Positions 11,601-35,400 are shown, counted from the stretch's first letter. The stretch: DNA of 64,000 bases from a virus (IMGVR_UViG_3300017700_000784:64001-128000), one strand, 5' to 3'. The notes: generated from the letters alone by a model not told the origin. Program-made: numbers and translations.

Positions 11601-11778
11601 TATAGATTCTGAATATAAAAGATTAACAGAAGAACAAGGGATGAGTCCTGATAATGCTGTTAAACTTTTGAGAGTTAAATCTATATATAAAGCTAAACAA
11701 AATAAAAATCCATATCTTAGCGGTCTGGGAGCAAGTAGCTATGGAGCTGTTTCTCCTTATGATTTTGATGAAGAATAA
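8656..11778 (+). CDS. Virion cargo/ejection protein
   Basis: N-terminal EAEGGE...G.RHSEGGVP...FIFSD block that I recall from crAss-like cargo proteins; four QxGG motifs; Asn/Gln/Ala-rich helical C-terminus. Confidence 0.75.
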   Translation: MYNIKIKSLPDSAKTGDQLNYSLVDRNSFYLKPSSQNEFVDDVKDTMSAVPKEEANVEAEGGETVVGDINNDGFVEHQRILGKRHSEGGVPLNIPPGAFIFSDTKKMTIKDPEVLKMFNMSERKKGYTPAEIAKKYDINNYIAVLKDKDRDTYEKNTAEVMLAKNMEKLGMLALVQESIKGFPDGIPAIAESAVAGFSGDQKMQFGGSLRKLQGGGFNAPRELNGIDEPDKRKAQTSASHSNITEGGNPEVGFTFYKGLVPVTVSKVDSKFAIDNGADAAYIKLSDGTRLNKQEFDTLRKKGSMKPAGFNKSSDIYSVKPLVYKNTIKDSDGNSVKLDLYSGDYFNYNGVDYQVLDPQAGSSNAYKGSGKAVRDTFDNTQGVVHVSYMGADGKLKNKFIEGEDIGDAYKFDKSLVKVNPNTFWRSKYDNSIKNQLAKYTTAKSATAATNAASIAPVKKTTSEVLQTPTAPFNPNLKVIPATEEVQSNVPFTKQDSITMFKRQEGGELPMAQFGGIEKREPKVVKSEKISLSNGTATKITYDTGEIEVVQNGKVSAYDAPDPTKFQASAAYKKGNWTESAAEVRRIYSDPKNDKLRTKLHERFSQLYPDLANTMTPEQSTALFLRGQEDVAKIQNAYSGSDFLKSDNWDRTGKFKSGANTVYKSVAKKLGIGELSPEDIKKYQGLYQAGQDIVDSPEFSGLFSNFDIKPVGVVDQTRTVNGVTRAISPVDNIWGNTTTGQGFRLKENLDRGKAPEKPDAVAPDIEAPTRPAQEQVNNKGGWWLQDRTNFYGALTDNIHKYDPAMANFDFAIPGYVLEDPSRKLAANQEQMNTMGEFVTNTQSGQNALATMLGISGKGFENAANVISEVDNRNVNTVNNASANSANIKNQEEQLNEGAKQKYVSEMATSNQQYDNARNQIKWRQIGAYNNGVTNLMRKKQQEQVLTPQVYIDPITGDVKWSGKSRDMFGVDTYHPPYNSSDNFDIDSEYKRLTEEQGMSPDNAVKLLRVKSIYKAKQNKNPYLSGLGASSYGAVSPYDFDEE

Positions 11779-11792
11779 TAAAACTATAACCA

Positions 11793-14447: not shown

Positions 14448-14461
14448 CCCCTTACTTTCCT

Positions 14462-17400: not shown

Positions 17401-19102
17401 AGGAGACATTAAAGATACTGAGTTACAAGATGCTTTTACAAAGCTTGTAGACTATATGCAATTAGATAGTGATACTAAAGATTATATTGATGCTGTTGAA
17501 GTATTAACCAATAAAGATAGATTTAGAGAAATTACCAAACAAATGAGTGATGGTAAGTATAAATTTAATCTTATTCATTATGTAGATACCTTAATGAATA
17601 CTTTTCAACAGGAAGCTTATGAAATTTCTAAAACTATAAAGAATATTAATAGTGCTTTAGAGTTTAATGATTACCTCAATCTTGTAAAAGATACCCAGGA
17701 TGATATTATGAATAATACATCTTATCTTAGATTAGTGGCCCTTATATCAAGTAAGGAGTTTGGTATGAATAAGAGAGATGAGGCTGCTGAGTATATTGAT
17801 GAAGTATCTAAGATTATAAAAGATAAGTTTCAGTCTTTTATTAAAACTCATTTATCTGAGCAGATAAGTAAGGATATTACTGATGAAGATTATAATAAAA
17901 TTATAGCTACCAATGACTTAGGTATAGTAGCTACATATCATATTGGAGATAAATTATTTAATTCAAGAGGAGATAAAGCTGTACTTACTGAAAGAGAGAA
18001 AGAACTTTACGAAAAATTTAAAGATGAGATTGACACTTATATATCAGATCTTCAGACTACTGAAACTGCTGAAAAGAATGCTCAACAAGTAGAACCTGAG
18101 GCAGAGTTAACAGAAGAACAAACACCAGCTCCAGTATCCAAAAAGGTTGTTAATGAGGCTGGAGTAGAATCAGATGTAGTTAATCCAGCTGATGAAGATG
18201 CTCCTGATGGGCCTAGTTTTGCAGGAGGTTTATCCTTTGGTAAGAAAAAACAAAATACTCCGGCAGCTCCTTTAGAAACTAAGACAGGTAGACCTAATCC
18301 TAGAAAGAAAAATGAGCCTGAGGATTTAGCTGATTATGAAGAAGAAGAAAGTGATACTCCTCTTACAGATGCTGAGATAGAAAGTTTATATGCTGAGGGT
18401 GAACTTGATGAAGCAGATTACATAGCTTATAAAAATACTAAAAGAGTTACTGATAGAATCCAGGCTATGGGAGTTGGTCCTATGGATAGCATGACAGATA
18501 CTATAGTAGAAATCATGTCTAAGCTTCAGACTTATGCTGACCAGGATAAAGTAAGCTTTGAGGTTTATTTTGATAATGCTAAAAACACCAAGCTTATTAA
18601 TGAAGTAATAACTAAAGCAGTTATTGAAGATCTTAATGGTGAGGAGATAGAAGATTTTAGTATTGGTGAAGTAGTAGTTACTCCTACCAATGATTATGAT
18701 AAAGAAGAGTTACTTAATCTCGAGATACCAGATGATATTATAGATGATATACTTAGTTCTTTAGATACTATGTTAGCTGATGTGGATAGTCTTACAACTA
18801 ACTCTGTTGTTGAGGATATAGAAAGAAGACGAGATCAAGAATTAACAACAATTGGTGAAGGTTTAACTTTTATTCCTGAGGCAGGTAAATATGCATATGA
18901 AGGAAATGATGGTAGTACTAAATATGTAAAAGGAAAAGATGTAGATAAACTGGAAACATTAGTCAATGCTAAATATGATTCTGAACTTCAAGCTTATATT
19001 AAAAATTCTGAAAAGTCATCAAAAAACACTAACTTTGTAAACGAGATAGTTACTGAGCAAACTATATACGATATGCTCAAAGATAGAAAACTTAACTGTT
19101 AA
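14462..19102 (+). CDS. Large ejection protein with probable membrane-inserting Gly/Ala-rich segments
   Basis: 1546 aa. Hydrophobic stretches FIGNAGFALGTTFALGLEFLADAAITTATSGAG (~15059-15157) and FLMGALTGTLI. EGLQE motif. Acidic linker. The only Cys is the last residue. Confidence 0.75.
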   Translation: MADNTLDTEQTLDTTNLLGDISSDISVDTTQPEKIDPPKQSFSDTINSGLQTAFQESYAPTPVSFEDEFFGAKGAKIKYHAPEVVDKYHAQEGFNPRLFDAEDEAQNLERYANNETVGSALAKGFDSFAFNFGNTFTGWFADYPKMVNALFSMDWDEMKPDEENLVNEYYAQQKNMNENYVFAKPGEEDDIFNKKFVSEFIGNAGFALGTTFALGLEFLADAAITTATSGAGFETFFATGARASAKLAAREAAKTATEAAGKSAFSNVFEDVFKGYRAGVEEAADIPRALNIASDASVIKQMEQAEVISAMAKSQGARKTLIKDYANMLSNNIFNIGKSKSVGELAGNIAKGTPLLGTATRFGERIGAAAEAGATMGQLFGIGLQGTRRLAQELNMSASESYFEAISTYGDTLDKMGKQYLLDNQGKAPSFDEFNRMKNLATAASGSNYDTNMGILLVTNHLQFGNLFSKYIPANKVVQDLIGESSERILTVSSKKGLQAVFKKGAVLGTLNTLGKVSAEFGKKEAMYQLGRSAFKNIARFELTEGLQENMQEVSAAGWRDYYSGKFNGTKATLSETMSAGLSSQFTKQGLKTFLMGALTGTLIRVPSKMLNFGLEKANKQFLKAQYSEEGAIDPYTAFEKRLDEDIELLNNFIKKGKNGSFETRLFNFNAQAQSALEQTASASVGAEYSFHNGKDNALLSAISAASRIGTTDAFVESIKNSIGDMTPEQFKKEFGIDIEDTEYASPQQFAAKMAGDVKKYTKTLEEFTRGFKTKLEDPRNFTPETPEYFMANYIRNAQEEALHIAAINSIKASMAVDRATSLANELSASPLLSNSSDLVLRVMTNPVMVISEVGRLKGDIKVAEQSIKLGGLDRAALKALRAEIKSKTNQLDELDKWASFWDTRKAMAEREETDASTDTTPIFVGKRVARDKATGKFTKRKYGEKQDKINFAYNQNHKDVMAVFKKLLIAKNEEAGITTGDIKDTELQDAFTKLVDYMQLDSDTKDYIDAVEVLTNKDRFREITKQMSDGKYKFNLIHYVDTLMNTFQQEAYEISKTIKNINSALEFNDYLNLVKDTQDDIMNNTSYLRLVALISSKEFGMNKRDEAAEYIDEVSKIIKDKFQSFIKTHLSEQISKDITDEDYNKIIATNDLGIVATYHIGDKLFNSRGDKAVLTEREKELYEKFKDEIDTYISDLQTTETAEKNAQQVEPEAELTEEQTPAPVSKKVVNEAGVESDVVNPADEDAPDGPSFAGGLSFGKKKQNTPAAPLETKTGRPNPRKKNEPEDLADYEEEESDTPLTDAEIESLYAEGELDEADYIAYKNTKRVTDRIQAMGVGPMDSMTDTIVEIMSKLQTYADQDKVSFEVYFDNAKNTKLINEVITKAVIEDLNGEEIEDFSIGEVVVTPTNDYDKEELLNLEIPDDIIDDILSSLDTMLADVDSLTTNSVVEDIERRRDQELTTIGEGLTFIPEAGKYAYEGNDGSTKYVKGKDVDKLETLVNAKYDSELQAYIKNSEKSSKNTNFVNEIVTEQTIYDMLKDRKLNC

Positions 19103-19114
19103 AACATACACTTT

Positions 19115-22100
19115 ATGAGTTGTTCACCTTCTGTTGAAAAAGACAAAGAAATCATAAAAGCTTTACTAAAACTTGACCCTGTTAAATATAAAAACTTTGA
19201 CAGGGTTGCTGAGTTTATATTAAATGCACCAATAGATGATGAGAGTAAGTCTGTATCATTACACACCATCTCTCATATGTTTATTCAACTTAATCAGAAG
19301 AATAACTCTTTTGAATTAGGTAAAGCATCATCTGTAGCAGAGATGGGTACACTACTTACAGACACTGCACAGCATCTTAGTGCTGTAAATCAGTTAGTTA
19401 AGTCAAAGAAAAATGTAGTCACAGGTCTACAACAGCTTATTAATGATTTTGTGGATGTAATGGATGAAGATTTATCTATAAAATCTTTTGATGATTATGA
19501 TGCACAAATCTTTAAACCTTTTCAGATATTCTTTACAAATTATAAATTCAATACAGAGGCTGAGAAAGCTAATGCTATATCTCAGGTTAAAGCTGTTATC
19601 ACAAAACTTGCTGATGCTTCTCCACTTAAGACATGGATTATAAGAAGAGCTGATGAGTTTATTGCAGACTTTAATAGAAAGACAGCTTTTATTCCATTAT
19701 CTGACCAACTTACTACAGATGAAAAGTTAAACACTTTTTTAGTAACCCTAAAGACAAAGGAAGTAGTAGAAGCTGTAAAAGATGCTTCAGGTTTTTATTA
19801 CAATGTCTTGACTGGGATGCCTATCTCGGAGTCTGATATAGATAATTATAGAAAGTCTATAAAAGTAGCTAGTTACCAAAGAGAGTCTGAAGCATCTGAT
19901 GATAAAATATCACACGTCTTCTATGACAATGACTTTGTATCAGGTTTAACAATAAGACCTTATAGTACTACTGAAAACTATAATGATGTAGTTTCTTACT
20001 TTGATGGAGTTTCTGACCCGGTAAAAGAAGTAAAAATATTTGCTGTAAAACTTAATGACTTTACAGATGATAGAATAAATACTATTAATAATATTCCTGG
20101 CTTAGAGAATAAAAAACATGAAACTTTTGAATCTCTTTCCCAGTCTGAATATCTTGCATCAGATCCTAATGGAGAAGTAATGGTAGTGGCAAGAGAAAAG
20201 AAATCAGAAAATAACTTTACACTTGTTGGAGAAGTAGAACTTGCCTCAGGTTTAAAGAAGAATTTTTATATCTATACTTTAGATAATTATGTATTACTTG
20301 ATTCAGATAATACTACTACTAAGCTTGACTTTACAAATAATTCCCACTTACAAAAAGTACAGGAGTTGGCCATCCTTAAAAAAGGAGGTAACTCTGTTAA
20401 CCTTAGTGAGTATGATTTACAGACTTTTAAAGTATTGGCTAATAAATTTAAAGAATTTAAGAACAAAGTATTACCTCTTCTTGAGGTAACTAGTGATGTA
20501 GCTGTTGATGTAAGTCAGTCATTTTATGATACTTATACTATAGATAAAGACTTTAAAATCAAGAGTCTTGAAACATTAAGAGAAGCTAAAGAATCAGGAT
20601 CAAATATATTTCAGGATGTAGAAGTAGTTACTGTTGATGATGATGGTAAAGTACTTACTCAGGTTACCAAACAATTACCTTTTATCTTTACAAAGGATTT
20701 TACAGGTGCCTTAGGTTTCAATGCTGTAGACTTTCTTAAAAGAGAAGAATATGTATTACACAATGGAGAACCTTATTCTTATGATGAATATCTTAAGGAA
20801 ATAGGTATTACTGAAAATGTAGTTAATGAGCTAATTAAGGATATCAATTCTTCTTATGTAAACTGTGTATATGTTATAAAAGATAAGACCGGAAAGCTTT
20901 CTTTTAGAATAGGTAAGTATATGGAACACTTAAGTAATGAAGTACTCTTTACTAAGTTTGTTGCTGATATGGCCGGATACATCAATGATACTAAAAATCT
21001 AACCAGAAACTTTGATAAGTTCTTTGAGCAATATAGCTTTAAATCAAGAAAGAGTAATGCTGGTGCATATACACTTAATATAAACTTTGCAGTAAGTCCT
21101 GTTGGAGAATTACAACTTGAATTTAGACCTGTTAAGTTTAAACCTGACTATGATTTTATCCTGGATGAAAAACAACAGTATAACTTTACTTTAGGTAAGA
21201 CTGTTATGCAGGATATACTTAAGACTATTGTGCCTACATCTGCAGAATATACTGAGTTACAAAACAAGTATTTATTTCTTAGAGAAATTCCTTTATATAC
21301 TACTGAAGGTCTAAACTATGACCAGGTGCCAGTATTTATTAATTCACTTTATGAGAATAATATGTCTACAAGTTCTCCTGTTATAGAGAGAGTACTTGAA
21401 AATATCAGAAAAGCACAGGATACTTTTAATAATAACATCTATGAGAATGTAATAGATACTGTAGAGAATAACCCAGAAGCTTATGAAGATTTTCTTAAAA
21501 AAGTAGAGGATGATTTTGGTGGACTTGAAAATTTACTTTTCAATAAATACGACAATAAGCTATTGATGCCTAGGGTTAAATTTGGTGAGAAACAAGTTAT
21601 CAATGTATCTAATAAAATAGAAAAAGGAGACTTGAATGTTACTTTTAACAATTATGGTGTAGTAAACTCTAATAACAAAAGATTACAAATAAGCACTACA
21701 GATAATGTAAGACCATCAAGCACCATGGCTGCTACTATAAATGAGGCAGCCCCTATAAATAATAATACTCCTACTCCTGTTACAGTACTTACAGAAGAAG
21801 ATATTACTATTCCTGTAGCTGGACCACTAGCTACTCTTCCTATTCCTAATAAAGCCTTTGAACCAGAAGATCCTGAAAATCTTGAGGACATGGATGATGT
21901 ACCTTTTGCTACATTGGATGCCAGTTCAAATGCTGCTATGGCTTCGCAGGAAGATATTTATGCTGAACATAACTGGTTTACTTCTACTTATGCTGATACT
22001 TTTCCTATTGAAGATTTAGATAATCTTAAAGATTTGATAAGACTTACTAAACTTGAAGGATCTGTATTAGGAGCTGTTAAGGATAAAGTAATTTACCTTA

Positions 22101-25100
22101 ATAAAAATCTAAGAACCAAAGGAGTTCTGTATCATGAATCTTTCCATGCTGTATTCAGATACCTTATGGAAGAACCTATGCGTAGAAACCTACTTGATAA
22201 TATTATTTCTAATAAAAAATATTCAAGTTCTTTTACTGAGAGTGCTAAGAAAGAATTTGCTCAAGATAGAAACCTAGTTGAGGATGATAACAGAATTACA
22301 GATTTAATAGCTGAGGAAATACTTGCTGATGGTTTTCAAGCATACATGAATAAGAAACAAGAGCCTAAGACTCTTATACAGAAATTCTTTGAGTTCCTTA
22401 AAAACCTTATAGCCTTCTTTAACAAACACTCTAAGTTTATTGATGAACAATATGGTAAAATAAGAAAAGGTGATTTCACAAGCCAAGTAAAAGAGTCTGA
22501 AGTATTTAATAATGAGATAGCTTTCTTATCTATCAGAGGATTACTTAAGGTAACTACAGATCCTAAGACAGGTAAAACTAAGACTGTAAAGACAGAACTT
22601 ACCAGTAAGCAGAAAAATGAGCTTATAGACTCTGTTGTATTTGAATTACTTAATGATAAGTCTGACAAGTCTTTTGATGAAAGATTTGCACAGGCTACTC
22701 TTAATGCTTTGAGTGTATGGGACTTTGATGCTTATTATAATCAGATTACTGACCCGGATAAAGCTGCTGCTTTTAAGAAAGAGTTTTATGAAAAGTGGAC
22801 AAACTTTAGATTTGTATTAGGTGGTAGAATGCATGGTTTAGCTGTGTATGACATCAATGATACCAATGATCCAAAGAATGATAATAAGACCTATAAAAAT
22901 ACTTATAAGTTCAGTACAAACTCTGAAACTGTAGATAATTTTCAGGGCCAGGCTTCTTATGCTTTATTGAGAGATGAAGTAGAAAGAAAGTATGGACATA
23001 TGAAAAACTTTATAGATGACTATGAGGATTTTTCTGATGATGAATCAAAAGACTTAGAGCGCCTTAAAGAATTTCTTGACTCTACTTATCATAATCCTCA
23101 AAATGATAATCAAGATGAGCAGGATGAAAATGTAAAAAATCCTTATGATGACAAGTCTTTGGCTGAAAAAGGAGGATTAGAGTCTTTACCTAAAGAGTTA
23201 AGACAAGCTTTTTCTATTATTAGATACCAATATGAAGATGCTAAATATGGTATTACTATACCTAAGCATGTTGATGGTTATGGTATGTTTGGAGTATTAC
23301 TTAAAATATCATCTGGGGTTGACGTAGATAATGTTGTTGACAATATAAAAATCTATAGTGACCAGCTTAGAGAAGACAATGTACATATAGCAGAAGCTGA
23401 AGACTTGCTTCAGATATATAATTATATTAAAGAGAAGTGTGGTATTATAGAAGATAATGGTTTTATCAGTATAAAGAATAATCAGTTCTATAACATGTTT
23501 ATAGATACAGTAGTAAAAGCTTCTGTGGATTATATTATGTATTCTGCTAACTTTAAAATATATGATCCTACTACAGATGATGACAATTATGATGCAGGGG
23601 GTGCTCCAGTGAATACAAAAAAATCAAGTTCTATGACTAGATTTGATATTCGTGATAAGATTCTTTCTGAGGATGTAAATAGAAAGAAGAGTTTACTTAT
23701 CCGGGATATGATTTCTACTTATAACAATAAGAAGAATACATCTGAATATATTACAGCTTTAACAGCTATAAGAAAATTTGCAAAAAAATATAGTGTAGAT
23801 ACTAATCTGCAGATATTAAGTCCTGTAGTAAATAATGATGCTGAAGTTGATAAGATGGCTAAAGAGCTTTCAGATAACTTTCAGCTTATAGGATTAAAGT
23901 TTCCTAAGTCTTTGATAAGATTATCTATTATTGGTATAGACATAGCTGAAAATAATAACACTCCAAAACTTAAAAGAGGAGGAGATGTACAACAGCATTA
24001 TATGGTCAATGAAAGATTTATAAATGAAGGTAAATATCTTCAGAAAGATTTCTTTAAGGATATTATCTCTCTTATAGATGAATTAGGTGCCGGTAGAATA
24101 TCAGGAACTGCATTATCTGAAAAGATGGATGACTCCGAAGGGCTTTATAGTAGACTTGGTATTATTATAAGAAATGCATCTAGTTATATTACAACTTATG
24201 ATCCAACAGAATTACCTAGTGTTTTTAGAAATGCTGAGGGTAAACCTGTATATAGATACTTACCTTACACTCCTGTACTTCATATAGCGGAAGAAGTAAG
24301 ACAGGGTGGATTGGAATCTTCATTAAGAAATGATCCTTTCTTTAATAACAGTTTTGAGTACTATTCAGTTAATCCTTACTTTAAAGACATATTTGCTAAT
24401 AAAAATTCTGAGTTAGCAAGACAGATGAAGTTATACTTTAGTAATTTTAATATCTCTTTGTATGGAGGAGTAGAGCAAACTGTAGATGATGAAAAGAGAG
24501 ACAGTAATGTATTTAAAAATCTTGATGATACCTCACAACATATCCTGGGCTTATTAAGTTTCTTAAAAAGAACTACACATACAGGTAAGATAAGTAGTAA
24601 AGATACTAGTATAGAGACTTTTACAAGAATGTTTACTACTATTGAGTCTACTAATACTAATTATCTTATGCCGGCTTATTATGAGCAGTATGCAGATAAA
24701 GATGGTTTAGTTACAACCAAAGATGGTTTCTTGGCACCAGTAGCCAGATTTACAGCTAAAATTGAGCAAGAGTATGAAAGAATCAGAGCAGAATATACAA
24801 GAGTAAAAATTCTTAAAAAAGAGTTTGATGCTGATAAAAGACTAGGTAACTATAAGCTTTTAAATAAGTATAATGCTATACTTGATGGTGACAAAGCCAA
24901 TGTTACAGATTCTTCTCTCAGAGCTTTTAACTTTAGTTATTTTCCTGAGTTTTGGAATAATGGTAATGATGATTTAAAACAAAGAATTATAGATAATGCT
25001 AAAGCCAATAAGCCTTTTAACACTATTGGTGATGATACTTTACAAGAACTTAAAGAAGGATTACAAAACTTTGCACAGTCTGAGCTTAATCAATACTTAG

Positions 25101-28100
25101 AAGACTTAGTAAGAAGAGATATTATAAAACCTCATCCTGACAGAGCAGGAGAATTTGTATCTACTATATTACCAAGAGTAGTAAAGAAAGATAATAGTTC
25201 TACTTCTTTAGTAGCATTGTATGGTGATAAGAATAAATACAATATTGGAAATGTAGTTTCTGATTACTTCTTTAACTTTTGGGTTAACAGCTTATTCTTC
25301 AATGAAATATTTGATGGTGATATAGCCTTGGGTGTTAAAAATGCTACAGACTATAATAAGCGTCAGAAGAGAAATGCTGCAGCCAACAGTAATTTTAAGA
25401 AAGGTGTCCATAAAGTATCTTATGGTAATACTATTAAAGCTTATATACATCCTGAATATTTAGGATTTGGCCCTTACTTCACACTTGATGAAGTTAAAAG
25501 TGATACAAGATTAATAGCTAATCCTGAGATTAGAGAAATACTTATAAGAGATTATGGTAAGAAAGTAACTGTAAATAATATACAAGTAGAAAGCATACAT
25601 GATTTATTTGATGGACAGTCTGTGTCTTTACTTATGCATCATGCAGACATGTATGACAGTATAGGAAGACTTAATGATAAAGTGATGGACTTAATTATTA
25701 AGAAACACTACACTACTCTTACTGCTAAAGAACTTAAATACTTACAAAAAAATAAAGTAGTACTTAACTCTAAGAAAACAGTAACAGCATCAAGAAGTTT
25801 ATATCATAAGCTTTCAGAAGTTTATATTGATAGAAATGATGTGAGTATAGCTATTCTTCCTACTGAAAGAATTTTACAAGGATGGACTGGTGAAGAAATG
25901 AGAAATCATTTACATAAGCTTTATACTGAGTTATATAACATCAGAAAGACTAATAATGAACTATTAAAAAGAAATGATAGTTCAATGTTGGCTGAAACTG
26001 AAGAGAAAGTAAAAGCTATAGTTACAGAGATTCATAAATATTTTATGCCTCTTCCTCATAGAGAGAAGTTGCATGATTTATTAAATTCTATGGAGTATCA
26101 TAACATTGATCAGTTTATGGATACAACAGCATCTAAACTTGCTACACTGCTTCCTACTAACTTGACTTACAAAGATGAGTCTGGATATATCATGCTTGAA
26201 AGATCTGCTATCTTTGCACCTAATAAGTACAAATTCTGGCAGGTTGAAACATCTGGAATTAAGAGTATGATTAAGTACTCTGTACAAAGTAAAGCTTTAT
26301 TACCAGCTAATTTAAAAGACATCACTACTATTCTTGATAAGAATGGTGTAAACATGTCTGAGGCTGAAAGAGCTTCTATTACTGAGGAGATGAATAATTT
26401 ACTTTATAATTATCATACTACCTTAAAAGATGTAGCATTGGCTCATGAAGCTTTAATGAATACATTCTTTACCAATGAAGATTTAGAGAGTAATGTTGGT
26501 TTCATGTTTGACCTTATTAGAAAGAATTTATCTGAACAGGGAGTTACTACTAATAAGCTTAAATTATTTGAGACTGATGCTACTACCGGTAAGCCTATAC
26601 ATAGTCCTAATCTACCAGAGATAAGAGACATGCTGGAGTATTATTTCTTTTCTCAGTATAGTAAGTTCACAGATGAAAAAGGTACAGGTGCTAAGTATAT
26701 ACACATGTCTGCTTATGGGTATGATGTACTTCAGGATAAAGATGGTAAAACTGTCTTTACAGAAGACTATAGAAAAAATCCTTTTGATGAAAAATATGAA
26801 GGGATTACTTCAAGACCATTAGGTATATCTGTAGAGAAAAAAGGAGATAAGACTGTATACTACATAGAGTGTATCCTTCCTAAACCTTTATATGATAATA
26901 GAGATCTTCTTAAGAAATATGAAGATAAAATCCTTAAGATGTTTGGGGTGAGAATTCCAACTGAGGATAAAAGATCTATGGTTGCATTAAGAGTAGTTGA
27001 TTATATTGACTCAGCTAATATGTCAGGTATTATAGTACCACAAGTTGTGCATATTTTAGCGGGGTCTGACTTAGATGTTGATACACTTTATACACAACAA
27101 TATAGCTTTTACAGAAACTATAATGGGGCCACAGTATTATATGGTGATTATAGTAACTATAGTGATAATACTACTGGAGAATACATTGAGTACCTTAATT
27201 ACTTATCAGAAGACAAAGATGTAAAACCTATTATTAAAGCTTATATCCAGAATATAAAACAAGGAACAACTCTTGAGTCTAATAGCCAGGTCTTAGACAT
27301 ACTTACTGAGTTAAACTTTGATCCTTCTAAATATAATTTAGCAGAGGCTTTCAGTTATATAAAAAATAATAATCTTACAGATATAGATATTGATAGCATC
27401 AATGATGATATTAGAGAACTAGATGAAAGTTCAGGAGAAATGTATAGTACAACTCTTCAGCATCTACTTGCTACAAGAGCCGATTACTATATGCAACTTA
27501 ATAACATTAAGTATGTAAATACTTATATTAAAATTTTAGCTACACTTAAAGCTCTTTCTGACTTTAAACTTCCTGCTACTAAAACTAAGTTTAAGTCTAG
27601 CAATGCTTCTTCTTTGGTTAAAAACAAGTTTCAAAATATACACTTAGATGCTAAACTTGATATACTGTCTAATAACAAAGTGTTTAATAATTTATACATA
27701 AATGAGCGCTCTTCTACACAGATGTTTATGGAGATACTTAATGATTTTGGTATTAAGCTTGAGTCTAATGATGATCCATTTACCATAACAGGTGTAATTA
27801 ATGCAAGAACTAAGAATGTATTAAGTAAGCTTGGTATTGGTGTAACAGCTAATAACAATAAGACTCTTGCTTTCTTGAGTCAGTATTTTGATGATGAGCT
27901 TACAGGTAACCTTAATGAAGTAGTATGGAAATTCAGATCTGATGTTAATCAGGACACTGCTAATAACTTTGATAAACTTGCAAGCTTCAATGTAGATGAT
28001 ACAAGAACTATTGCTATCATTGGTAATATCCTAGGGATGTTTGCTGATGGTGTAAAAGAACCTATTCCTGCAGCACTACACTTAAATGAAATAAACACAA

Positions 28101-31100
28101 ATATCACACTAACCATGTTAGGTCTTGGTATGGACCCAAGATTTGCTTTAGCTTATAATTTTATTCCAGAGATAGTAAATGCTATAGAGTCTGTGCAACA
28201 AAGCATGTATGCAGTAAGTGATGGTGTAAGTAATACAAGAAGTTATCTTATTACAGAGTTAAACTCACAAATGTTTAATCTTTCAAGAAATCCAAAAGAC
28301 CCTTCAGACAAGTATCACTTTATGAATGAGCTTAAGGATGCAGGTTTAGTAAGTAAGAAATCTTCCATCTTTAATATGTCTATCATAAAAGATAATTTAA
28401 TTATCAAGTATGATAAAAAGAAACTAGACCCTACAAGATTTAGAGATAATAAGTTAAGTCTTATGGATTTGGGTATTACTGTTTCTTCAAGAGAAACTAT
28501 CAAAAATGAGGATACAGGTGGTTATGAATACACAGAAGTTTCTCTTTCTGAGAATGCACAAAAGCTTATATTATTACAGCTTTATAAAGAACAGTCTGAA
28601 CAAAGTTCTAAAATCATGTCTGCAGGTAACATTGTAAATATGTTTAAAAACATGCGACCAGATTTTGATTTCTTAGATAAGATGAGAAAAGATGTAAGAG
28701 CTTTAAAATCAGGTACTTCTATTATTACAGATGATGTAGCTAATAGAATATTTGAGAACAACCAAGTATGGCCTGTTATAGACAGAATACTTGAGCATGC
28801 TGATGAGAAATCTAAGATGTTTATTGAGCGCTCTGAAGTGTTTAAACCTATCAAGGATACTTTTGAATATTTATTTAAAAATAAAAAACTATTTGCTAAG
28901 ACTGTTACAGCTTATGTAGCACTTAACAAGTATAAAAATACTTTTATCCAGAATGACCCTGTATACAGTAGTTTATCTCCTGCTATTAAAGAGATCAAAG
29001 ATGCTGAAAGTGTTATGATGACTGAGATGTTTAGAGCTGACTATTGGTTTAACAACAATCTTGAGGAAGAACTTACAGAGATGCAGGAAAAACATCCGGA
29101 TAACATCTTTCTTAATAGATTAAGATCTTTTACAACCAGTAATTCAGCAATGACTACTACTGAGGTAGAGTATAAGGAAAAAGTAATAACTCTTATTGGT
29201 GGTGATAAAATCACTGGTAGCTTATTACAAGACATGGAGGATGATGCTAACAATCTTTTTGTTACAGAGCCTTTGTTCTTTAAAAGATTGTTTATACATG
29301 AGCTTGTAAGAACAGGTCTTAAATATAGAAAAGGTTCTTTTTATACTTTTATTAGTCCTGACTTTAAGCGTGACTTATCTAAGTATGTTGATGAATTTGT
29401 GGATGTGCTTAAAAAATCATCTACACCTGATATTACAGAACAGAACTTAATGGAGTACCTAAATGTAACTACTCCTGATGAAGTATACAACTTCATGAGA
29501 GATATGTTAGCAAACTTAGTGTATACATCTTCTGCAGAAGTAGATAATAATAAAATTCTTAAACCTACTTCAGATACAAGAAAAATTAATGTTTCAGATA
29601 AAGATGATCTTATTATGAAGATGGATTTTTCAAGTATTGTAGATCCACAGTATGATGTAGTGTCAGAAGTATTTAATCATATATTACCTCTTGATGGCAG
29701 TTATAGTATTATATCTGATAAGCTTTCTTTAGATAATAATTCTAAATATTTAGTATTTAACTTTAATATTCCTGATAAATCTTACGGTAACCTTAGTAAG
29801 TTTAATATGATAGATGTAGCCAAAGCTTTTGGATTTGAATATCATGATAAACTTGGTAGCTTTATATTTCCTGCAGCTATTAATATTAATGGAGATTTCT
29901 ATTTACTACAAGGAGTAGATGCTAAGATAGACCAGCCTATAGGAAAGAATCTTCTTAATGTTACAATCATAGATAAAGACAGAGACTTTGTTACTGATTA
30001 TAATACAGGTAAGCTCGCTTTCTATCAAAAAATACCAAAAGCTCCTACAAGTAGTAGTTTAAGTACTGCAGCATTAGACCTTAATCAGTTACAGAGATAT
30101 TCTGATTTAACTGCTGCATTATCAACTCAATTCTTAGATGAAAGAGTAAAAGTGTATAGAAATCTTTCTAAAGATAATCTTAAAAAACTTCATGATATTA
30201 TTAATAACAAAACTTTATCTGAGAATAAAGACTCTGTAGTTAGTAATATTATCTATGGAGATATGGAAGAATTAAGAAAACTTCATAATGAAGGAACTGC
30301 TTTATATACCATGCGTGTAAGTAAAAAACAAACAGGATCTACTCAGTATGGATTTAAAAGTCTTAGTGATACACAACATTTTGGTAATCCTTTCACAGGT
30401 TCAGAGAAAGAAGGTTTAGTATCAATGAAGAATATTAGCGCTGCAGTTGATGCTTATGAGCAATGGTTAGATGGACAGGATAAATTCATAGATAAGAATG
30501 GTAATAAACATGATTTAACAGAGCAATCTCCTCGTAGAGACTGGATACTAGCACAGATTGAGCATTTGGCACAACAACCAGAGATGGTAAAACTTGGATA
30601 CTTTAAAGCAGGATATAAATCTCATGCTGATGTTATCAATGAAAAGATTATCTCTCTAAGAAAAGCCAAAGGTTTAGAAACTGAGTCTAAGGAAGCTATT
30701 GAAATACAGTCAGCTATTATAGTACAGCAGGAACTTCAGTCAAGATATGACGAGTTAGTAGAAGCTAAGAAACTTATTGCTGATACCACTGAGATGATTG
30801 TAGTAAATAATCTTCCTAAACTTACTCCGGAGTCAGCTAAAAAAGAGACTGGTACCAATACAGGTACTAATCAGGATATTAGTCCAGCACTATTAAGTAA
30901 TGATGGAGTTACTGTAGAACAAGCTGCTCATGATATATGGGAAGATAACTTTGTGGATACAGGTGTAGATACTCAGGATGTAAGAAATATTATCATAGAT
31001 ATATTACTTTCCGGTAAACAGAATTATATCAAAGCTTTAACCAGACAGGATGAGATAGATGAACTTAAGCGTCAGTTAGCTACTCCTAAGACAGAAGCAA

Positions 31101-32005
31101 ACACAGAATTCAACATTGGTGATTATACTAATCATTCTGGAGGAGCTGTTGGAGCTGATAGTGCCTGGGACAATATAGGTAAGCAGTATGGTATGGTTAA
31201 TAACAAACATTATTGGACTGATGCCCAAACTCCTAAAGGTAATACTGAAATTAGTAAGGAAGATTTTGAAGAGGGTAGATATGAATCTGCTAAAGCTGCT
31301 CAAAGAAACTTTGGTTATCAATATGCTACTATGAAAGATAGCAGATTAATAAGAAACTGGAGCCAAGTAAAATATTCAGATGCTATATTTGCAATAGGTA
31401 CAATAGTAGATAAAGGAGAACCTTTATTCCCTAAGTTAAAAGCTGATACAAGAGTTGCCTTAACACCTTCTGTAACAGGAGGAACAGGTTATGCTGTGGG
31501 TATGGCTATAAATCATAATCAACCTACTTATGTATTTAATCAAACTAGTTCTACTAAATATAGTACTGGATGGTATACATGGGATAGTACAGCAAATGAT
31601 TTTATAAAAACTGAAACTCCTATTTTAACTAAGGATTTTGCAGGAATAGGTACAAGAGAAATTAATGACTTAGGTAAACAAGCTATAAAAGAGGTTTATG
31701 AAAATACTTTAAACTTAAAAATTACTCCTCAGAAAAAAGCTCAACCTAAAGCTGCTAAACCTGAAGTAAAAAAGGTAGAAGTAAAAAAACCTAAAAAGAA
31801 TTTAAGTTATGAACAAGAACAATTATCTTTGTTTACCCCAGAAGCTATAGTAGAGAAACCTACTATTATAGAAAAAGCTGATGTTGCTACAGATGATGTA
31901 GTAAATCCTGGTGAAGATGAAGTAGGAATGTTCAAGAGTAAATTCAAATTTGGTCAGAAGAAAAACTTACCAGATATTCCAGAAACAGATGAAAATTGTA
32001 AATAA
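19115..32005 (+). CDS. Virion-packaged double-psi beta-barrel RNA polymerase polyprotein (phi14:2 gp66-like) with zincin peptidase and C-terminal accessory domains
   Basis: RIPTEDKRSM (26951-26980) followed by GSDLDVDTL (DxDxD at 27068-27082), matching the RIP...GSDFDIDK layout of crAss-like vRNAP. HESFH zincin at 22133-22147 with downstream EEILAD. Size and synteny fit. Confidence 0.88.
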   Translation: MSCSPSVEKDKEIIKALLKLDPVKYKNFDRVAEFILNAPIDDESKSVSLHTISHMFIQLNQKNNSFELGKASSVAEMGTLLTDTAQHLSAVNQLVKSKKNVVTGLQQLINDFVDVMDEDLSIKSFDDYDAQIFKPFQIFFTNYKFNTEAEKANAISQVKAVITKLADASPLKTWIIRRADEFIADFNRKTAFIPLSDQLTTDEKLNTFLVTLKTKEVVEAVKDASGFYYNVLTGMPISESDIDNYRKSIKVASYQRESEASDDKISHVFYDNDFVSGLTIRPYSTTENYNDVVSYFDGVSDPVKEVKIFAVKLNDFTDDRINTINNIPGLENKKHETFESLSQSEYLASDPNGEVMVVAREKKSENNFTLVGEVELASGLKKNFYIYTLDNYVLLDSDNTTTKLDFTNNSHLQKVQELAILKKGGNSVNLSEYDLQTFKVLANKFKEFKNKVLPLLEVTSDVAVDVSQSFYDTYTIDKDFKIKSLETLREAKESGSNIFQDVEVVTVDDDGKVLTQVTKQLPFIFTKDFTGALGFNAVDFLKREEYVLHNGEPYSYDEYLKEIGITENVVNELIKDINSSYVNCVYVIKDKTGKLSFRIGKYMEHLSNEVLFTKFVADMAGYINDTKNLTRNFDKFFEQYSFKSRKSNAGAYTLNINFAVSPVGELQLEFRPVKFKPDYDFILDEKQQYNFTLGKTVMQDILKTIVPTSAEYTELQNKYLFLREIPLYTTEGLNYDQVPVFINSLYENNMSTSSPVIERVLENIRKAQDTFNNNIYENVIDTVENNPEAYEDFLKKVEDDFGGLENLLFNKYDNKLLMPRVKFGEKQVINVSNKIEKGDLNVTFNNYGVVNSNNKRLQISTTDNVRPSSTMAATINEAAPINNNTPTPVTVLTEEDITIPVAGPLATLPIPNKAFEPEDPENLEDMDDVPFATLDASSNAAMASQEDIYAEHNWFTSTYADTFPIEDLDNLKDLIRLTKLEGSVLGAVKDKVIYLNKNLRTKGVLYHESFHAVFRYLMEEPMRRNLLDNIISNKKYSSSFTESAKKEFAQDRNLVEDDNRITDLIAEEILADGFQAYMNKKQEPKTLIQKFFEFLKNLIAFFNKHSKFIDEQYGKIRKGDFTSQVKESEVFNNEIAFLSIRGLLKVTTDPKTGKTKTVKTELTSKQKNELIDSVVFELLNDKSDKSFDERFAQATLNALSVWDFDAYYNQITDPDKAAAFKKEFYEKWTNFRFVLGGRMHGLAVYDINDTNDPKNDNKTYKNTYKFSTNSETVDNFQGQASYALLRDEVERKYGHMKNFIDDYEDFSDDESKDLERLKEFLDSTYHNPQNDNQDEQDENVKNPYDDKSLAEKGGLESLPKELRQAFSIIRYQYEDAKYGITIPKHVDGYGMFGVLLKISSGVDVDNVVDNIKIYSDQLREDNVHIAEAEDLLQIYNYIKEKCGIIEDNGFISIKNNQFYNMFIDTVVKASVDYIMYSANFKIYDPTTDDDNYDAGGAPVNTKKSSSMTRFDIRDKILSEDVNRKKSLLIRDMISTYNNKKNTSEYITALTAIRKFAKKYSVDTNLQILSPVVNNDAEVDKMAKELSDNFQLIGLKFPKSLIRLSIIGIDIAENNNTPKLKRGGDVQQHYMVNERFINEGKYLQKDFFKDIISLIDELGAGRISGTALSEKMDDSEGLYSRLGIIIRNASSYITTYDPTELPSVFRNAEGKPVYRYLPYTPVLHIAEEVRQGGLESSLRNDPFFNNSFEYYSVNPYFKDIFANKNSELARQMKLYFSNFNISLYGGVEQTVDDEKRDSNVFKNLDDTSQHILGLLSFLKRTTHTGKISSKDTSIETFTRMFTTIESTNTNYLMPAYYEQYADKDGLVTTKDGFLAPVARFTAKIEQEYERIRAEYTRVKILKKEFDADKRLGNYKLLNKYNAILDGDKANVTDSSLRAFNFSYFPEFWNNGNDDLKQRIIDNAKANKPFNTIGDDTLQELKEGLQNFAQSELNQYLEDLVRRDIIKPHPDRAGEFVSTILPRVVKKDNSSTSLVALYGDKNKYNIGNVVSDYFFNFWVNSLFFNEIFDGDIALGVKNATDYNKRQKRNAAANSNFKKGVHKVSYGNTIKAYIHPEYLGFGPYFTLDEVKSDTRLIANPEIREILIRDYGKKVTVNNIQVESIHDLFDGQSVSLLMHHADMYDSIGRLNDKVMDLIIKKHYTTLTAKELKYLQKNKVVLNSKKTVTASRSLYHKLSEVYIDRNDVSIAILPTERILQGWTGEEMRNHLHKLYTELYNIRKTNNELLKRNDSSMLAETEEKVKAIVTEIHKYFMPLPHREKLHDLLNSMEYHNIDQFMDTTASKLATLLPTNLTYKDESGYIMLERSAIFAPNKYKFWQVETSGIKSMIKYSVQSKALLPANLKDITTILDKNGVNMSEAERASITEEMNNLLYNYHTTLKDVALAHEALMNTFFTNEDLESNVGFMFDLIRKNLSEQGVTTNKLKLFETDATTGKPIHSPNLPEIRDMLEYYFFSQYSKFTDEKGTGAKYIHMSAYGYDVLQDKDGKTVFTEDYRKNPFDEKYEGITSRPLGISVEKKGDKTVYYIECILPKPLYDNRDLLKKYEDKILKMFGVRIPTEDKRSMVALRVVDYIDSANMSGIIVPQVVHILAGSDLDVDTLYTQQYSFYRNYNGATVLYGDYSNYSDNTTGEYIEYLNYLSEDKDVKPIIKAYIQNIKQGTTLESNSQVLDILTELNFDPSKYNLAEAFSYIKNNNLTDIDIDSINDDIRELDESSGEMYSTTLQHLLATRADYYMQLNNIKYVNTYIKILATLKALSDFKLPATKTKFKSSNASSLVKNKFQNIHLDAKLDILSNNKVFNNLYINERSSTQMFMEILNDFGIKLESNDDPFTITGVINARTKNVLSKLGIGVTANNNKTLAFLSQYFDDELTGNLNEVVWKFRSDVNQDTANNFDKLASFNVDDTRTIAIIGNILGMFADGVKEPIPAALHLNEINTNITLTMLGLGMDPRFALAYNFIPEIVNAIESVQQSMYAVSDGVSNTRSYLITELNSQMFNLSRNPKDPSDKYHFMNELKDAGLVSKKSSIFNMSIIKDNLIIKYDKKKLDPTRFRDNKLSLMDLGITVSSRETIKNEDTGGYEYTEVSLSENAQKLILLQLYKEQSEQSSKIMSAGNIVNMFKNMRPDFDFLDKMRKDVRALKSGTSIITDDVANRIFENNQVWPVIDRILEHADEKSKMFIERSEVFKPIKDTFEYLFKNKKLFAKTVTAYVALNKYKNTFIQNDPVYSSLSPAIKEIKDAESVMMTEMFRADYWFNNNLEEELTEMQEKHPDNIFLNRLRSFTTSNSAMTTTEVEYKEKVITLIGGDKITGSLLQDMEDDANNLFVTEPLFFKRLFIHELVRTGLKYRKGSFYTFISPDFKRDLSKYVDEFVDVLKKSSTPDITEQNLMEYLNVTTPDEVYNFMRDMLANLVYTSSAEVDNNKILKPTSDTRKINVSDKDDLIMKMDFSSIVDPQYDVVSEVFNHILPLDGSYSIISDKLSLDNNSKYLVFNFNIPDKSYGNLSKFNMIDVAKAFGFEYHDKLGSFIFPAAININGDFYLLQGVDAKIDQPIGKNLLNVTIIDKDRDFVTDYNTGKLAFYQKIPKAPTSSSLSTAALDLNQLQRYSDLTAALSTQFLDERVKVYRNLSKDNLKKLHDIINNKTLSENKDSVVSNIIYGDMEELRKLHNEGTALYTMRVSKKQTGSTQYGFKSLSDTQHFGNPFTGSEKEGLVSMKNISAAVDAYEQWLDGQDKFIDKNGNKHDLTEQSPRRDWILAQIEHLAQQPEMVKLGYFKAGYKSHADVINEKIISLRKAKGLETESKEAIEIQSAIIVQQELQSRYDELVEAKKLIADTTEMIVVNNLPKLTPESAKKETGTNTGTNQDISPALLSNDGVTVEQAAHDIWEDNFVDTGVDTQDVRNIIIDILLSGKQNYIKALTRQDEIDELKRQLATPKTEANTEFNIGDYTNHSGGAVGADSAWDNIGKQYGMVNNKHYWTDAQTPKGNTEISKEDFEEGRYESAKAAQRNFGYQYATMKDSRLIRNWSQVKYSDAIFAIGTIVDKGEPLFPKLKADTRVALTPSVTGGTGYAVGMAINHNQPTYVFNQTSSTKYSTGWYTWDSTANDFIKTETPILTKDFAGIGTREINDLGKQAIKEVYENTLNLKITPQKKAQPKAAKPEVKKVEVKKPKKNLSYEQEQLSLFTPEAIVEKPTIIEKADVATDDVVNPGEDEVGMFKSKFKFGQKKNLPDIPETDENCK

Positions 32006-32007
32006 TT

Positions 32008-32457
32008 ATGCCTTGTAAAATCCAGATCCAATCCCTTGTAGAAAACCTTGTTGATGAAATGACTCAACAAGGTTTATCTATGTCTTTACCTAATGCAACT
32101 CTATTGGCTGCTAAAACTAATATAGATTTCCAGCATAATGTAGTATACTTTTATAATGATAAAGGTAAAGTGGCTCGTAAGATTAATATACCTTCTGAAC
32201 TAGTAGATGTCTACTATGACAAACAGCTTATAAAACAGACTGCAGATAATTCAAACACTACTGTGTCAGAACTTGATGCAGATATTAAGAATTTGAATTT
32301 AACACCAGATGTTGTATCTTACCTATATGAGACAAGTAGATCTAAATCTATTGGTAGAAATATAGAAAACTTTACTGCTCAGGTCAATAAACTTGCAAAT
32401 AACCTTCAAACTTCTTTCTCTAATGAAGAAATCATAGAGAAAATAAAATGTCTATAA
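32008..32457 (+). CDS. Small virion-associated protein with Cys near both termini
   Basis: 149-aa ORF tightly packed between two giant genes. The only Cys residues are 3 and 148. Confidence 0.75.
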   Translation: MPCKIQIQSLVENLVDEMTQQGLSMSLPNATLLAAKTNIDFQHNVVYFYNDKGKVARKINIPSELVDVYYDKQLIKQTADNSNTTVSELDADIKNLNLTPDVVSYLYETSRSKSIGRNIENFTAQVNKLANNLQTSFSNEEIIEKIKCL

Positions 32458-32458
32458 T

Positions 32459-35400
32459 ATGAGTTGTTTAACCACACAAGCTTTAAAAGATTTCTTAGCT
32501 GACCTTCAAACATTTAACTCTGCCATTACAGATGCAGATGCTCTTGCAGCATATGACATTTATAATAGTGATAATAATTTAGAGAATCAAATACCTCCTA
32601 TTGACAAGGCCTTGGAAATTCTCAATGATTTAACTACTTATGAAAAAGATGAGCAATTAGCAAGGTCTACAGAAACTTTTAAGTTAAAAAAACTTGATGA
32701 GCAGAATGAGCTTATAGCAACAATCTTTGAGGGAGGATATGCTAATGAGAACCAGATAGGAACTTTAAATAAGATTCTTGATATGACAGCAAATCATATG
32801 GAGTTTCTTAATAATGCTATAAATTCTGGAGTAAAGACAAGAACTATTAGTGTATCAAGATTTATAGGTAACTCTAAATTTAAAGGTGACCCAGCTGAGT
32901 ATGAAGCTTTCAAACTCTTTGGTACATTCATCCATGATATACTTGAAAATCTACAGAAAGAAGCTATTCAAAAAGATAATATATCTTCCAGAAAAATACT
33001 TACAAGAGAAAAGTTTAATGGCTATCTTACAAAATATAGAGAAAACAATCCTTTTAGAATAGAGAACTTAGATGATGATAAGCTTTATGTGATGACAGAA
33101 GATTTAGTTAATCATATAGCTACTCTTAAGTCTGCAGGATACTTAATTCTACCAGAGATCTCTATCATAGGTGTAGATATAAACGGCACCAGAATCATAG
33201 GTCGTATAGACATGCTTCTTATAGATCCAAAAGGAGATGTAAAGATATATGACTTTAAAACTAAGAAAGTACAGTTACTTGATGAGGGAGGAGACTGGCA
33301 GAAAGATAATGCTGAAGCTACACTTGCCTGGTTAGCTTTAAAGACACATGAGATGTCTAAAGAAGAAGGAACTCAAGATGGTTTTGTAACAGGGGAATTC
33401 TCAAGAAGAAGTGCCTATGACACATGGGCTATGCAGGTGAATGTATATAAAAATATACTAGAGCAAAATGGCATAGACGTAGAGGGACATTCTATATTAG
33501 CCTTATTATATGAAACAGATAAGGATAAAAACTTTCTTGGTAGTATAGTTCATGAGTTCTTACTTGAGAACTATTATATATATGCTGATAATGATTCTCA
33601 GCTTGATTCTGATGGGGTAAGTATTATCAAAAAAAGAAAGCTTGACCAGCGTATAGCTAGAGTTAAAACTATAGTAGATAAGATTATCACCGGTAAAGTA
33701 TCTACAAAAACTGAAAAAGTAAAAGCTACTAAGTTACTACATGAAGTTTTACAACCTAGTGACCAGGAGTATGAGAAAATGCGTACTAACATCAAGTCTC
33801 TTATAGATAAGCAACTTGTTGAAGTAAACACTAAGCTTTATAATAAAAGTACAGCAGTAGCCATTAAGAATGTATTACAAGAGAGAAAGACTACATTGGT
33901 TAAATACAATGAGGTGCTTTCTAAAATGAATGATGAAGATTTTGATAGGTCTGTAAACTTTGCTATTGTCATGGATGAGTTAACTTCTGAATTAACTTTT
34001 CTTAATGAAAAGGCAGAAGAATTACATACTAAATTTAAAAGTAATCCTGAAAAATTTAATAAAACTGATTTAAGCAAAATTGATTTACTCTTTAAGAACT
34101 CTGAGAGTCTTAATGATATATTACTCATCATGCAGAGAGTACTTAATGAAGCAAGAGACCAGGATGAAAATAACATCACAGTTATAAGTCCTGCAGTAAA
34201 TGCTATGGGTACTATTTTAGGTTTTAAAGAAAACATTAGAACCATTAAGTCTGAAATTATGCGTCAGAAAGCTGTTACTAAAGTGCTTATGACTCCAGGT
34301 GAAAAGAAATTTGGAAGAATAAATTCTCAGTTAACAGAACTTTTAAGTAAAGAAAAAGAAATACTTGAACAGGAAATAGTTGATTTACAGGCAGGTAAGA
34401 GTTTATCTTTTTATCAAAGTATCAAATCAGCAGCGCTTAGTGTAGTAAGTAATACTTATAAACAGAGACTTGCTGAGAGATTGGATCCTTCCAGTCCAAG
34501 ACTTGCTCTTATAGAAGAAAAAGAAAAAGCTATTAGTATTATTAATAATTTATTAAATGGAGCCTTTGATTATTCTGAAGAAGGAGTATTAGCTTATTTA
34601 GATAATATTACTAACCCGGATAGTACTTTCTATGTAGGATCTGATAGAGTATTACCTTATTCTATGATTCTTTCAGGTTTAGCTACAAATCAATGGGTGG
34701 CTAGTATTGCTAATAAAGATTTAGGTATAGCTTCTGTAACAGAGATGTTAAAAAACTCTGCAGCATTAGCCGTAAAAAATGCACAAAATGATTTTGCCTC
34801 ATCTAATTTTGATAAGGTAAGAAATAAACTATACCAAAAAGGTATGTCTTTTGAACAGATTAATGCTATCATTACTGATAGAGTTACTGTTAAGTACAAA
34901 GACAGAACCACTGGTGAAGATAAAGAGAAAACTCAGTTATCTTTAGTAACTCCTTATACACAAGAATATAAAGAAAAATGGTTCTCTTATAAAGATGAAC
35001 TTAGAGAGTATAAAGCTGAAATAAGAACTCTTAAATCTTCAAGAACTAAAGCTAATTTTAAGGAAGTAAATGAGCAAATTAAACAAGTAGAAAACAGACG
35101 CTCACTTAAGGTAAAAGAGTTTACTAACTGGATGATAGATAACTGCAGTCTTCCTTATGTAAATGAGTTTTATACTTTACAGAGAGATTTACCAAGAGAG
35201 ATAGCTGAAAACTTACAGGATTTATATCTTGAACTCGAGACTTATCATTACTTTGAAAATATGAAAGGTATAGGTGAAGAAGCTATTGATGACCTTGATG
35301 TGATGACACCTTTTGACTTTGAAAGAATAGGTGAAATAGAAGATGAAATCAGAGGATTACGTGAGAAAGCTAAAGAAATAGATCCTGCTTATGCTGATTA

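Follow-up and report, generated by a model that had tools for sequence, protein, structure and literature searches.

How do crAss-like phages fit over 700 kDa of protein, a polymerase included, into their particles and deliver it to the host? No phages are more abundant in the human gut than the Crassvirales, and the question has been raised both by the crAss001 atlas and by the papers on coliphage N4. Here we consider it for a stretch of viral DNA of 64,000 nt, IMGVR_UViG_3300017700_000784:64001-128000 (the window, from whose start its coordinates are counted), in which ORF calling gives a co-oriented block of large ORFs. Four consecutive members of this block, in which sequence comparison recognises what is probably the RNA polymerase module that a distant crAss-like phage packages in its virion, carry cysteines where the end of one protein faces the start of the next and almost nowhere else. 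The rule that emerges from their relatives, with cysteines at facing termini only, at each break in the polypeptide and at no fusion, provides a concrete physical model for the organisation and ejection of the cargo: the split polyprotein may be rebuilt by head-to-tail disulfides.

Cysteines at the facing termini in the window

The first chain protein (1546 aa, 14462..19102; all window features described here lie on the + strand) has no N-terminal cysteine, and its sole cysteine is its last residue, Cys1546 (codon TGT, 19097..19099). It is followed by the fusion protein that contains the virion RNA polymerase (vRNAP; 4296 aa, 19115..32005), which begins MSC and ends in DENCK, with Cys3 (TGT, 19121..19123), Cys4295 (TGT, 31997..31999) and three non-conserved internal cysteines at residues 584, 1442 and 2586. 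Next comes a small protein of 149 aa (32008..32457), here called the adaptor, which begins MPC, ends in KIKCL and contains Cys3 (TGT, 32014..32016), Cys148 (TGT, 32449..32451) and no others. The last chain protein (2002 aa, 32459..38467) begins MSC and contains Cys3 (TGT, 32465..32467) as well as cysteines at 896, 1446 and 1576, and it has no C-terminal cysteine. Both adaptor cysteines and the Cys3 of the 2002-aa protein are invariant among relatives, the former in alignment A1 (Cys3) and in 18/18 rows of alignment A3 (Cys148), the latter in 17/17 rows of alignment A4. Altogether the four chain proteins, 7,993 residues long, have six non-terminal cysteines, and the cargo ORFs upstream of them (5017-14447) have 0, 1, 0 and 0.

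Translation and cysteine counting therefore reproduce exactly what a first-pass annotation of the window had read from the sequence: a cysteine at all six facing termini, about three internal ones in the vRNAP, clean ends to the series and upstream cargo proteins nearly free of cysteine.

The genome is 135,967 bp long, and its remaining 131 ORFs served as background for a chance estimate; in these, cysteine makes up 1.49% of residues and is found within the first 7 residues of 6.1% of ORFs and within the last 4 residues of 4.6%. At these rates the joint probability for the six termini, calculated naively, is about 2e-8, and at the chain proteins' own internal cysteine frequency of 0.075% it is about 2.5e-15. 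Away from their termini the chain proteins are depleted in cysteine by about 20-fold. The terminal pattern is not a product of chance.

The genome carries an amber-suppressor tRNA, which is without effect on the three junctions because all of their stop codons are TAA (3/3). Stop-codon read-through was rejected on the same ground, and because a common reading frame is found for the first ORF pair only.

Cysteine pairs mark breaks in the polypeptide and are absent from fusions

For a systematic survey, the profile of alignment A2, which covers the catalytic region of the vRNAP, was used to collect 80 IMG/VR loci, which form 28 clusters at 50% identity of that region. ORFs were called mechanically with the first ATG as start, and a junction was scored as positive when a cysteine lay both within the last ten residues of the upstream protein and within the first ten of the downstream one. 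Both cysteines were present at 98 of the 112 size-defined module junctions; of the 134 pairs of neighbouring genes elsewhere in the same loci, which served as controls, 10 had them. Among the 14 junctions without a pair, two involve the window's upstream cargo genes and lie outside the module, and four reflect miscalled start codons, an internal methionine giving M-S-C or M-D-C. The remaining eight come from four loci in which the cysteine pair skips an interposed ferritin-like ORF. This ferritin/Dps-like ORF (162-165 aa; L042 8294-8791, L064 13817-14305, L067 13216-13713, L070 8776-9264) has the motifs EE..SSRLY, EHA.WA and EQ.EE, lacks terminal cysteines and separates the vRNAP gene from that of the last chain protein.

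The positions are tightly constrained. Of 121 N-terminal cysteines, 119 fall within residues 3-7, and of 114 C-terminal ones, 103 are followed by 0-3 residues; internal cysteines have a frequency of 0.09% across the surveyed chain proteins. Such positions leave no room for the halves of a split intein (0-3 residues lie beyond one cysteine, and the other is residue 3-7 of its protein), and no Pfam intein domain was found; protein trans-splicing was therefore rejected. CaaX-type prenylation was also rejected, since the cysteine is followed by anything from zero to nine residues in varied contexts.

The module occurs in at least four architectures, which allow breaks and fusions to be compared directly. 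In some loci the first protein is fused to the RNA polymerase and the last protein is separate (for example, a 5158-aa protein with a C-terminal cysteine followed by a 1419-aa protein with an N-terminal one); in the Intestiviridae a separate first protein is followed by the RNA polymerase fused to the last protein; elsewhere there are three separate proteins, or the chain is extended by small double-ended adaptors (one or two, 142-859 aa). Fusions of the first protein to the RNA polymerase (4866-5158 aa) have a single cysteine, beside the C-terminus. The adaptor offers the same comparison within the window's own clade: its C-terminal domain (NLNLTP..YLY...EKIKCL) belongs to a separate protein in the window and in L017 and L025-L028, and is fused to the C-terminus of the vRNAP in L018, L021-24, L031, L033 and L077. 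The pair formed by a C-terminal DEN(N)C and a following M-x-C is restricted to the split-adaptor forms and absent from the fused ones; the fused protein of L018 (3773 aa) has Cys3 and Cys3772 only. The cysteine pair is strictly coupled to polypeptide breaks, being present at breaks and absent at fusions.

Close relatives of the window follow the same pattern. All contigs with relatives of the 149-aa protein keep the DENCK/MPC junction, the KIKCL end and the MSC start, with no other cysteine in these fragments. The C-terminal cysteine of the vRNAP is kept in L001-L006 and in the split-adaptor relatives (ending in DENNC or TTDC), and the first proteins of clade relatives end in LQC, DCFS, ACFK and similar sequences.

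The cultured phages follow the rule. Four cysteines, all terminal, occur in the 5,398 residues of three phi14:2 proteins: the last residue of gp67 (1797 aa), Cys3 and Cys2179 of gp66 (2180 aa) and Cys3 of gp65 (1421 aa). In crAss001 and cr112_1, the sole cysteine of gp47 is 1-2 residues short of the end and that of gp49 is Cys5, and in gp50 a cysteine lies at position 5 and another 8 residues from the end; in crAss001 the C-terminal ones are Cys2339 of gp47 and Cys2404 of gp50. The Intestiviridae (cr11_1, cr110_1, cr107_1, crAss002 and 'jaberico') have a protein of about 2000 aa ending in C-x and a vRNAP of 4100-4400 aa that begins M-[SA]-C, includes the gp65-like part and is without a C-terminal cysteine. 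Across families, the cysteine is the sole residue conserved at these termini. The conservation and complementarity of terminal cysteines throughout the Crassvirales, on which the first-pass annotation had staked its proposal, is thus borne out, and decisively so, in cultured phages as well as in 28 lineages.

Adjacency of the genes is not required. In crAss001, gp47 is encoded on the opposite strand, convergent to gp50 and gp49 and not next to gp50, and the cysteine pair is still present; the convergently encoded gp47 homologues of Steigviridae-like loci end in KCIAF. This arrangement excludes a signal at the nucleotide level of the junction, and translational coupling was rejected along with it, given also that interposed ferritin-like genes are skipped. 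The rule can mark members of the cargo chain even where their genes are not adjacent.

It can also aid annotation. An 833-aa fragment of cr116_1 without an N-terminal cysteine is an apparent exception to the rule. In this phage (L009, MT774389.1, 14097-14936) the vRNAP gene probably contains a group I intron with a LAGLIDADG homing-endonuclease ORF (annotated gp_24129, '17 gene product') and partial matches to Rfam RF00028 that lie below the gathering score (E 7e-7 and 4e-6). In the record each of the two vRNAP exons appears as a protein of its own (2507 and 833 aa), and in the IMG/VR relative L084 the vRNAP gene is uninterrupted, with Cys3 and a cysteine as the last residue. As the second exon behind an intron, the 833-aa protein was rejected as a counter-example. 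Likewise, the annotated starts of crAss002 gp33 (L011, 16278 vs 16374) and cr110_1 gp_23009 (L012, 16173) are probably 32 and 14 codons, respectively, too far upstream; both have an in-frame downstream M-S-C start, as used by cr107_1 and cr11_1.

Could the terminal cysteines act independently of one another, each carrying a modification or tethering its protein to something else, such as the portal, the DNA or the inside of the capsid, or be a compositional accident? Nothing specific favours this, although lone cysteines near a C-terminus, without an obvious partner, do occur in crAss002 gp30, its cr107_1 homologue and the 757-aa protein of jaberico. Independent action would not account for chains that never start with an N-terminal cysteine and never end with a C-terminal one, for the disappearance of cysteines at fused junctions, for recurrence in 28 lineages, or for a chance probability of at most 2e-8 in the window alone, and we regard it as very improbable. 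The lone cysteines just mentioned belong to a cargo protein upstream of the chain (L011 5583-7256, L010 4881-7259, L014 4960-7233) and lie 7-10 residues from its end, in the context F[RK]CGGKKKIA in crAss002 gp30 and the cr107_1 homologue and as Cys747 in jaberico; they have no obvious partner.

Identity of the chain proteins

Residues 2300-3000 of the vRNAP align by tblastn and BLASTP with the vRNAPs of crAss001 (gp50), crAss002, cr11_1 and phi14:2 (gp66, PDB 6VR4). The catalytic metal-binding motif GSDLDVD (DxDxD; residues 2650-2656, 27062..27082) lies within this region, and its G and three D residues are invariant in alignment A2. The A2 profile matches 6VR4, but alignment A2 itself includes gp66; a phmmer search of the PDB with the vRNAP gave no match. 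Further upstream, the vRNAP has a zincin-like HExxH motif, HESFH (residues 1007-1011, 22133..22147), and residues 974-1122, which surround it, are matched by the C-terminal part of crAss001 gp47 (E 5e-6). Since the zincin-like region belongs to the N-terminal third of the window's vRNAP and to the C-terminal end of gp47, the break between first protein and RNA polymerase is placed differently in the two phages.

The 2002-aa protein is a gp65/gp49-like RNA polymerase-associated protein, its homology lying in the C-terminal region, where residues 1485-1874 match cr116_1 gp_24131 (E 4e-12), phi14:2 gp65 (E 6e-6) and crAss001 gp49 (E 2e-5). Near its N-terminus it contains a PD-(D/E)XK nuclease domain (residues 147-297, 32897..33349; Pfam PF12705, 35.9 bits against a cut-off of 22), whose motifs GRIDMLLID and DFKTKK are invariant in the window's clade in alignment A4. 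A 34-residue match to the PD-(D/E)XK motif is found in crAss001 gp47, indicating that modules have moved between chain members. The protein also has a hydrophobic segment, DALTMILLTMASMMALAWLK (residues 1840-1859, 37976-38035), the sole strong one in the four chain proteins; it lies close to the chain's end and is a candidate for a membrane helix.

The other two proteins are harder to place. The 1546-aa protein gave no direct BLAST match to gp47 or gp67, and tblastn against deposited phages was also empty; it is tied to the gp47/gp67 family only transitively, through the 1552-aa protein of Leptolyngbya phage Lbo-JY46, which matches both the 1546-aa protein (E 4.5e-9) and gp47 (E 3e-10). The adaptor belongs to no family in PHROGs or Pfam, and it has three metagenomic relatives with 63-85% identity. 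None of the four chain proteins matched PHROGs, Pfam gave no domain in three of them, the IMG/VR search returned no close relatives of the 149-aa or 2002-aa protein, and nothing was found by an A1 profile search of IMG/VR and metagenome contigs or by blastn against deposited phages. Homologous proteins have been found in crAss001 and phi14:2 virions by mass spectrometry (PMC10172136; phi14:2: bioRxiv 10.1101/2020.03.07.982082).

A possible disulfide-linked chain and its known counterparts

Taken together, the comparative data and an analogous structure lead us to propose, with a probability of roughly two in three, that head-to-tail disulfides rebuild a split polyprotein, each C-terminal cysteine being bonded to the Cys3 of the next protein and the links being held through packaging and ejection. 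In the window the pairs would be Cys1546 of the first protein with Cys3 of the vRNAP, Cys4295 of the vRNAP with Cys3 of the adaptor, and Cys148 of the adaptor with Cys3 of the 2002-aa protein. The bonds would form after the assembled particle leaves the reducing cytoplasm, and the four products would then be continuous, as a nearly linear thread about 8,000 residues long that matches, in chemical terms, the one polyprotein encoded by some relatives. Cysteines would have been removed from the rest of the chain and from the co-packaged cargo, preventing wrong pairs or scrambling. The bond would keep the split module together in packaging and ejection, with each protein pulling its successor through portal and tail; in the cytoplasm, host thiol reductases would then release the subunits. 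The location of the cysteines at the extreme ends, with a constant C-to-N direction, would make the product nearly linear and suited to a narrow tail. A fixed ejection order, a fixed stoichiometry and release by reduction may follow from such an arrangement.

The pairing that the first-pass annotation had suggested is thus supported by comparative evidence and by analogy, while the bond itself in this phage is inferred. The analogy comes from the cryo-EM structure of the pre-ejectosome of cyanopodophage A4 (PNAS 2025), in which a disulfide joins Cys1715 of gp27 to Cys5 of gp26 in the mature capsid (PMC12002296). In the A-4L genome these two residues are the sole cysteines of the 1717-aa gp27 and the 1114-aa gp26, the one in gp27 lying 2 residues from the C-terminus. 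The C-terminal helix of gp27 is inserted in a cleft of gp26, within a folded pentameric ring, and is fixed there by the disulfide; the authors mention a possible 'chain reaction' on ejection, and the paper makes no mention of the sole-cysteine signature or of any generalisation (PMC12002296). Full-text literature searches found no paper on these cysteines, on the rule or on a covalent link in the Crassvirales, so the first-pass annotation's belief that such a chain had not been described stands for the rule in this order and fails for the single bond, which has its precedent in phage A4.

The phage A4 structure also bears on which cysteines would pair. Cysteine parity alone would permit another topology in three- and four-protein chains, in which the middle proteins close on themselves (Cys3 to their own C-terminal cysteine) and the C-terminal cysteine of the first protein pairs with Cys3 of the last. 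However, two-protein chains (Intestiviridae, Lbo-JY46 and phage A4) can pair only the first C-terminus with the second N-terminus, which is the bond seen in phage A4, and every new break brings a new flanking pair, for which mutual pairing is the simplest reading; we give the alternative topology very little credence.

A shared metal ion (Zn, Fe or Cu) bridging the terminal cysteines would follow the same pairing logic, S-metal-S in place of S-S, with coordination holding the chain and loss of the metal releasing it. Such a site could arise while particles assemble in the reducing cytoplasm, and four lineages do have a ferritin-like ORF within the module. However, each junction offers two thiols with no conserved His, Cys, Asp or Glu adjoining, and two-ligand sites are weak; the terminal cysteines number 2, 4 or 6 according to the count of breaks, which indicates pairs rather than a single Cys4 site; and the sole solved case with the signature is a disulfide (PMC12002296). 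A metal bridge therefore seems improbable to us.

A different question is what a disulfide would do. The bonds could be static staples that lock folded cargo in the capsid, with no role in threading, order or redox release, which is the same chemistry as our proposal and differs from it in function only. The phage A4 bond, which stabilises the gp27 helix in the gp26 cleft of a folded pentameric ring, fits this, and AlphaFold models of crAss001 gp46-gp50 are of folded helical proteins (PMC10172136). However, a staple could sit anywhere on an interface, whereas the cysteines are at termini, always C-to-N in module order, and so reproduce the connectivity of the fused polyprotein. In addition, the crAss001 tail has constrictions of less than 50 A, which require partial unfolding of the cargo (PMC10172136). 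A purely static role is, we think, unlikely.

Several points weigh against the disulfide-linked chain. The bond has been seen in phage A4 only, and the crAss001 atlas left gp47, gp49 and gp50 unresolved (PMC10172136). Neither this atlas nor the phi14:2 preprint mentions terminal cysteines or a covalent link (PMC10172136; bioRxiv 10.1101/2020.03.07.982082). Virions assemble in a reducing cytoplasm and the gut habitat is anoxic, conditions against which oxidation would have to occur. Homology of phage A4 gp26 and gp27 to the crAss module was rejected, as there was no BLASTP match at E <= 0.01 and no profile HMM match (best E 0.11 to 4), which makes phage A4 an analogue and not a homologous model, and its bond, a staple in a folded pentameric assembly, would carry no information on threading. 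N4 ejects its vRNAP and two partners without any cysteine, so such links are not needed for polymerase ejection. Lastly, a few C-terminal cysteines lie 6-9 residues from the end, and one, in L042, has no visible partner: the 1882-aa protein of this locus (8801-14449) ends in RLECG, and the next large protein (1348 aa, 14766-18812) is free of cysteine. This cysteine is either unpaired or has a partner encoded elsewhere.

Co-folding of terminal pairs, which had been suggested at the outset, was run for one junction and adds little. Modelled together, the adaptor and residues 1-420 of the 2002-aa protein reached an ipSAE of 0.39 against 0.00 for the best control, which lends weak support, with no contacts reported. 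The mark it reached is reached by 58/80 solved complexes and 2/110 mismatched pairs, and scores of 0.60 or below were given by 7/80 solved complexes and both of these mismatches. Its runs, made with custom alignments, agree in at least 98% of contacts, with a partner pLDDT of at least 64.

A wider generalisation can be offered as a conjecture, with the odds somewhat against it: terminal disulfides may serve crAss-like phages and at least some cyanophages as redox-cleavable substitutes for peptide bonds. At each point where evolution splits the giant RNA polymerase polyprotein into separate genes, a cysteine pair would reconnect the products once assembly is complete, and one ordered thread of up to about 8,000 residues, sometimes linked via small double-ended adaptors like the 149-aa protein, would be injected and then cut into active subunits by the reducing cytoplasm of the host. 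A further point in favour of the disulfide-linked chain itself is that disulfides do occur in crAss001 virions, both in the tail and inside the capsid, in the gp57 dimer; reduced and non-reduced samples were run for mass spectrometry in the crAss001 atlas (PMC10172136). The proposed link would be of a kind known from a single structure, that of phage A4, and the cultured phages should make it directly testable.

How does the window's module compare with known systems? With phage A4 it shares large ejection proteins encoded by adjacent genes, a lone or nearly lone cysteine near the upstream C-terminus and a cysteine at about position 3-6 of an otherwise cysteine-poor downstream protein. The phage A4 pair has one link and no RNA polymerase, whereas in the window three links would follow one another and a 149-aa protein would serve as a dedicated double-ended adaptor; the likeness lies in mechanism, not in descent. 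With coliphage N4 it shares a giant virion RNA polymerase that is ejected with partner proteins, and a strong avoidance of cysteine. However, N4 gp50 (the vRNAP, 3500 aa), gp51 and gp52 have no cysteine at all (L099, 14523-27523), hence none at their termini, and the N4 polymerase is an unrelated T7-like single-subunit enzyme (PMC13434306). Cysteine avoidance may be general for ejected proteins.

A further counterpart is Lbo-JY46 (L097, PP438436.1, 3396-16302). Its 1552-aa and 2748-aa proteins are homologues of crAss gp47 and of gp49/gp65/the window's 2002-aa protein, respectively, and their sole cysteines are the last residue of the former and Cys4 of the latter; unlike the window, this is a two-protein chain in a 125-kb cyanophage that its record leaves unclassified in Crassvirales. 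Among the Crassvirales, the counterparts are gp67-gp66-gp65 of phi14:2 and gp47-gp50-gp49 of crAss001, with a homologous GSDLDVD core, a homologous last protein and the same terminal-cysteine rule. The window differs in that its RNA polymerase protein is 4296 aa long and bears the zincin-like region found at the end of crAss001 gp47, and in its extra 149-aa link. Finally, some crAss-like phages have fused RNA polymerase polyproteins, for which proteolytic cleavage was expected by the authors (bioRxiv 10.1101/2020.03.07.982082). These contain the same modules in the same order, joined by a peptide bond where the window has separate genes and, as we propose, a post-translational join between paired cysteines.

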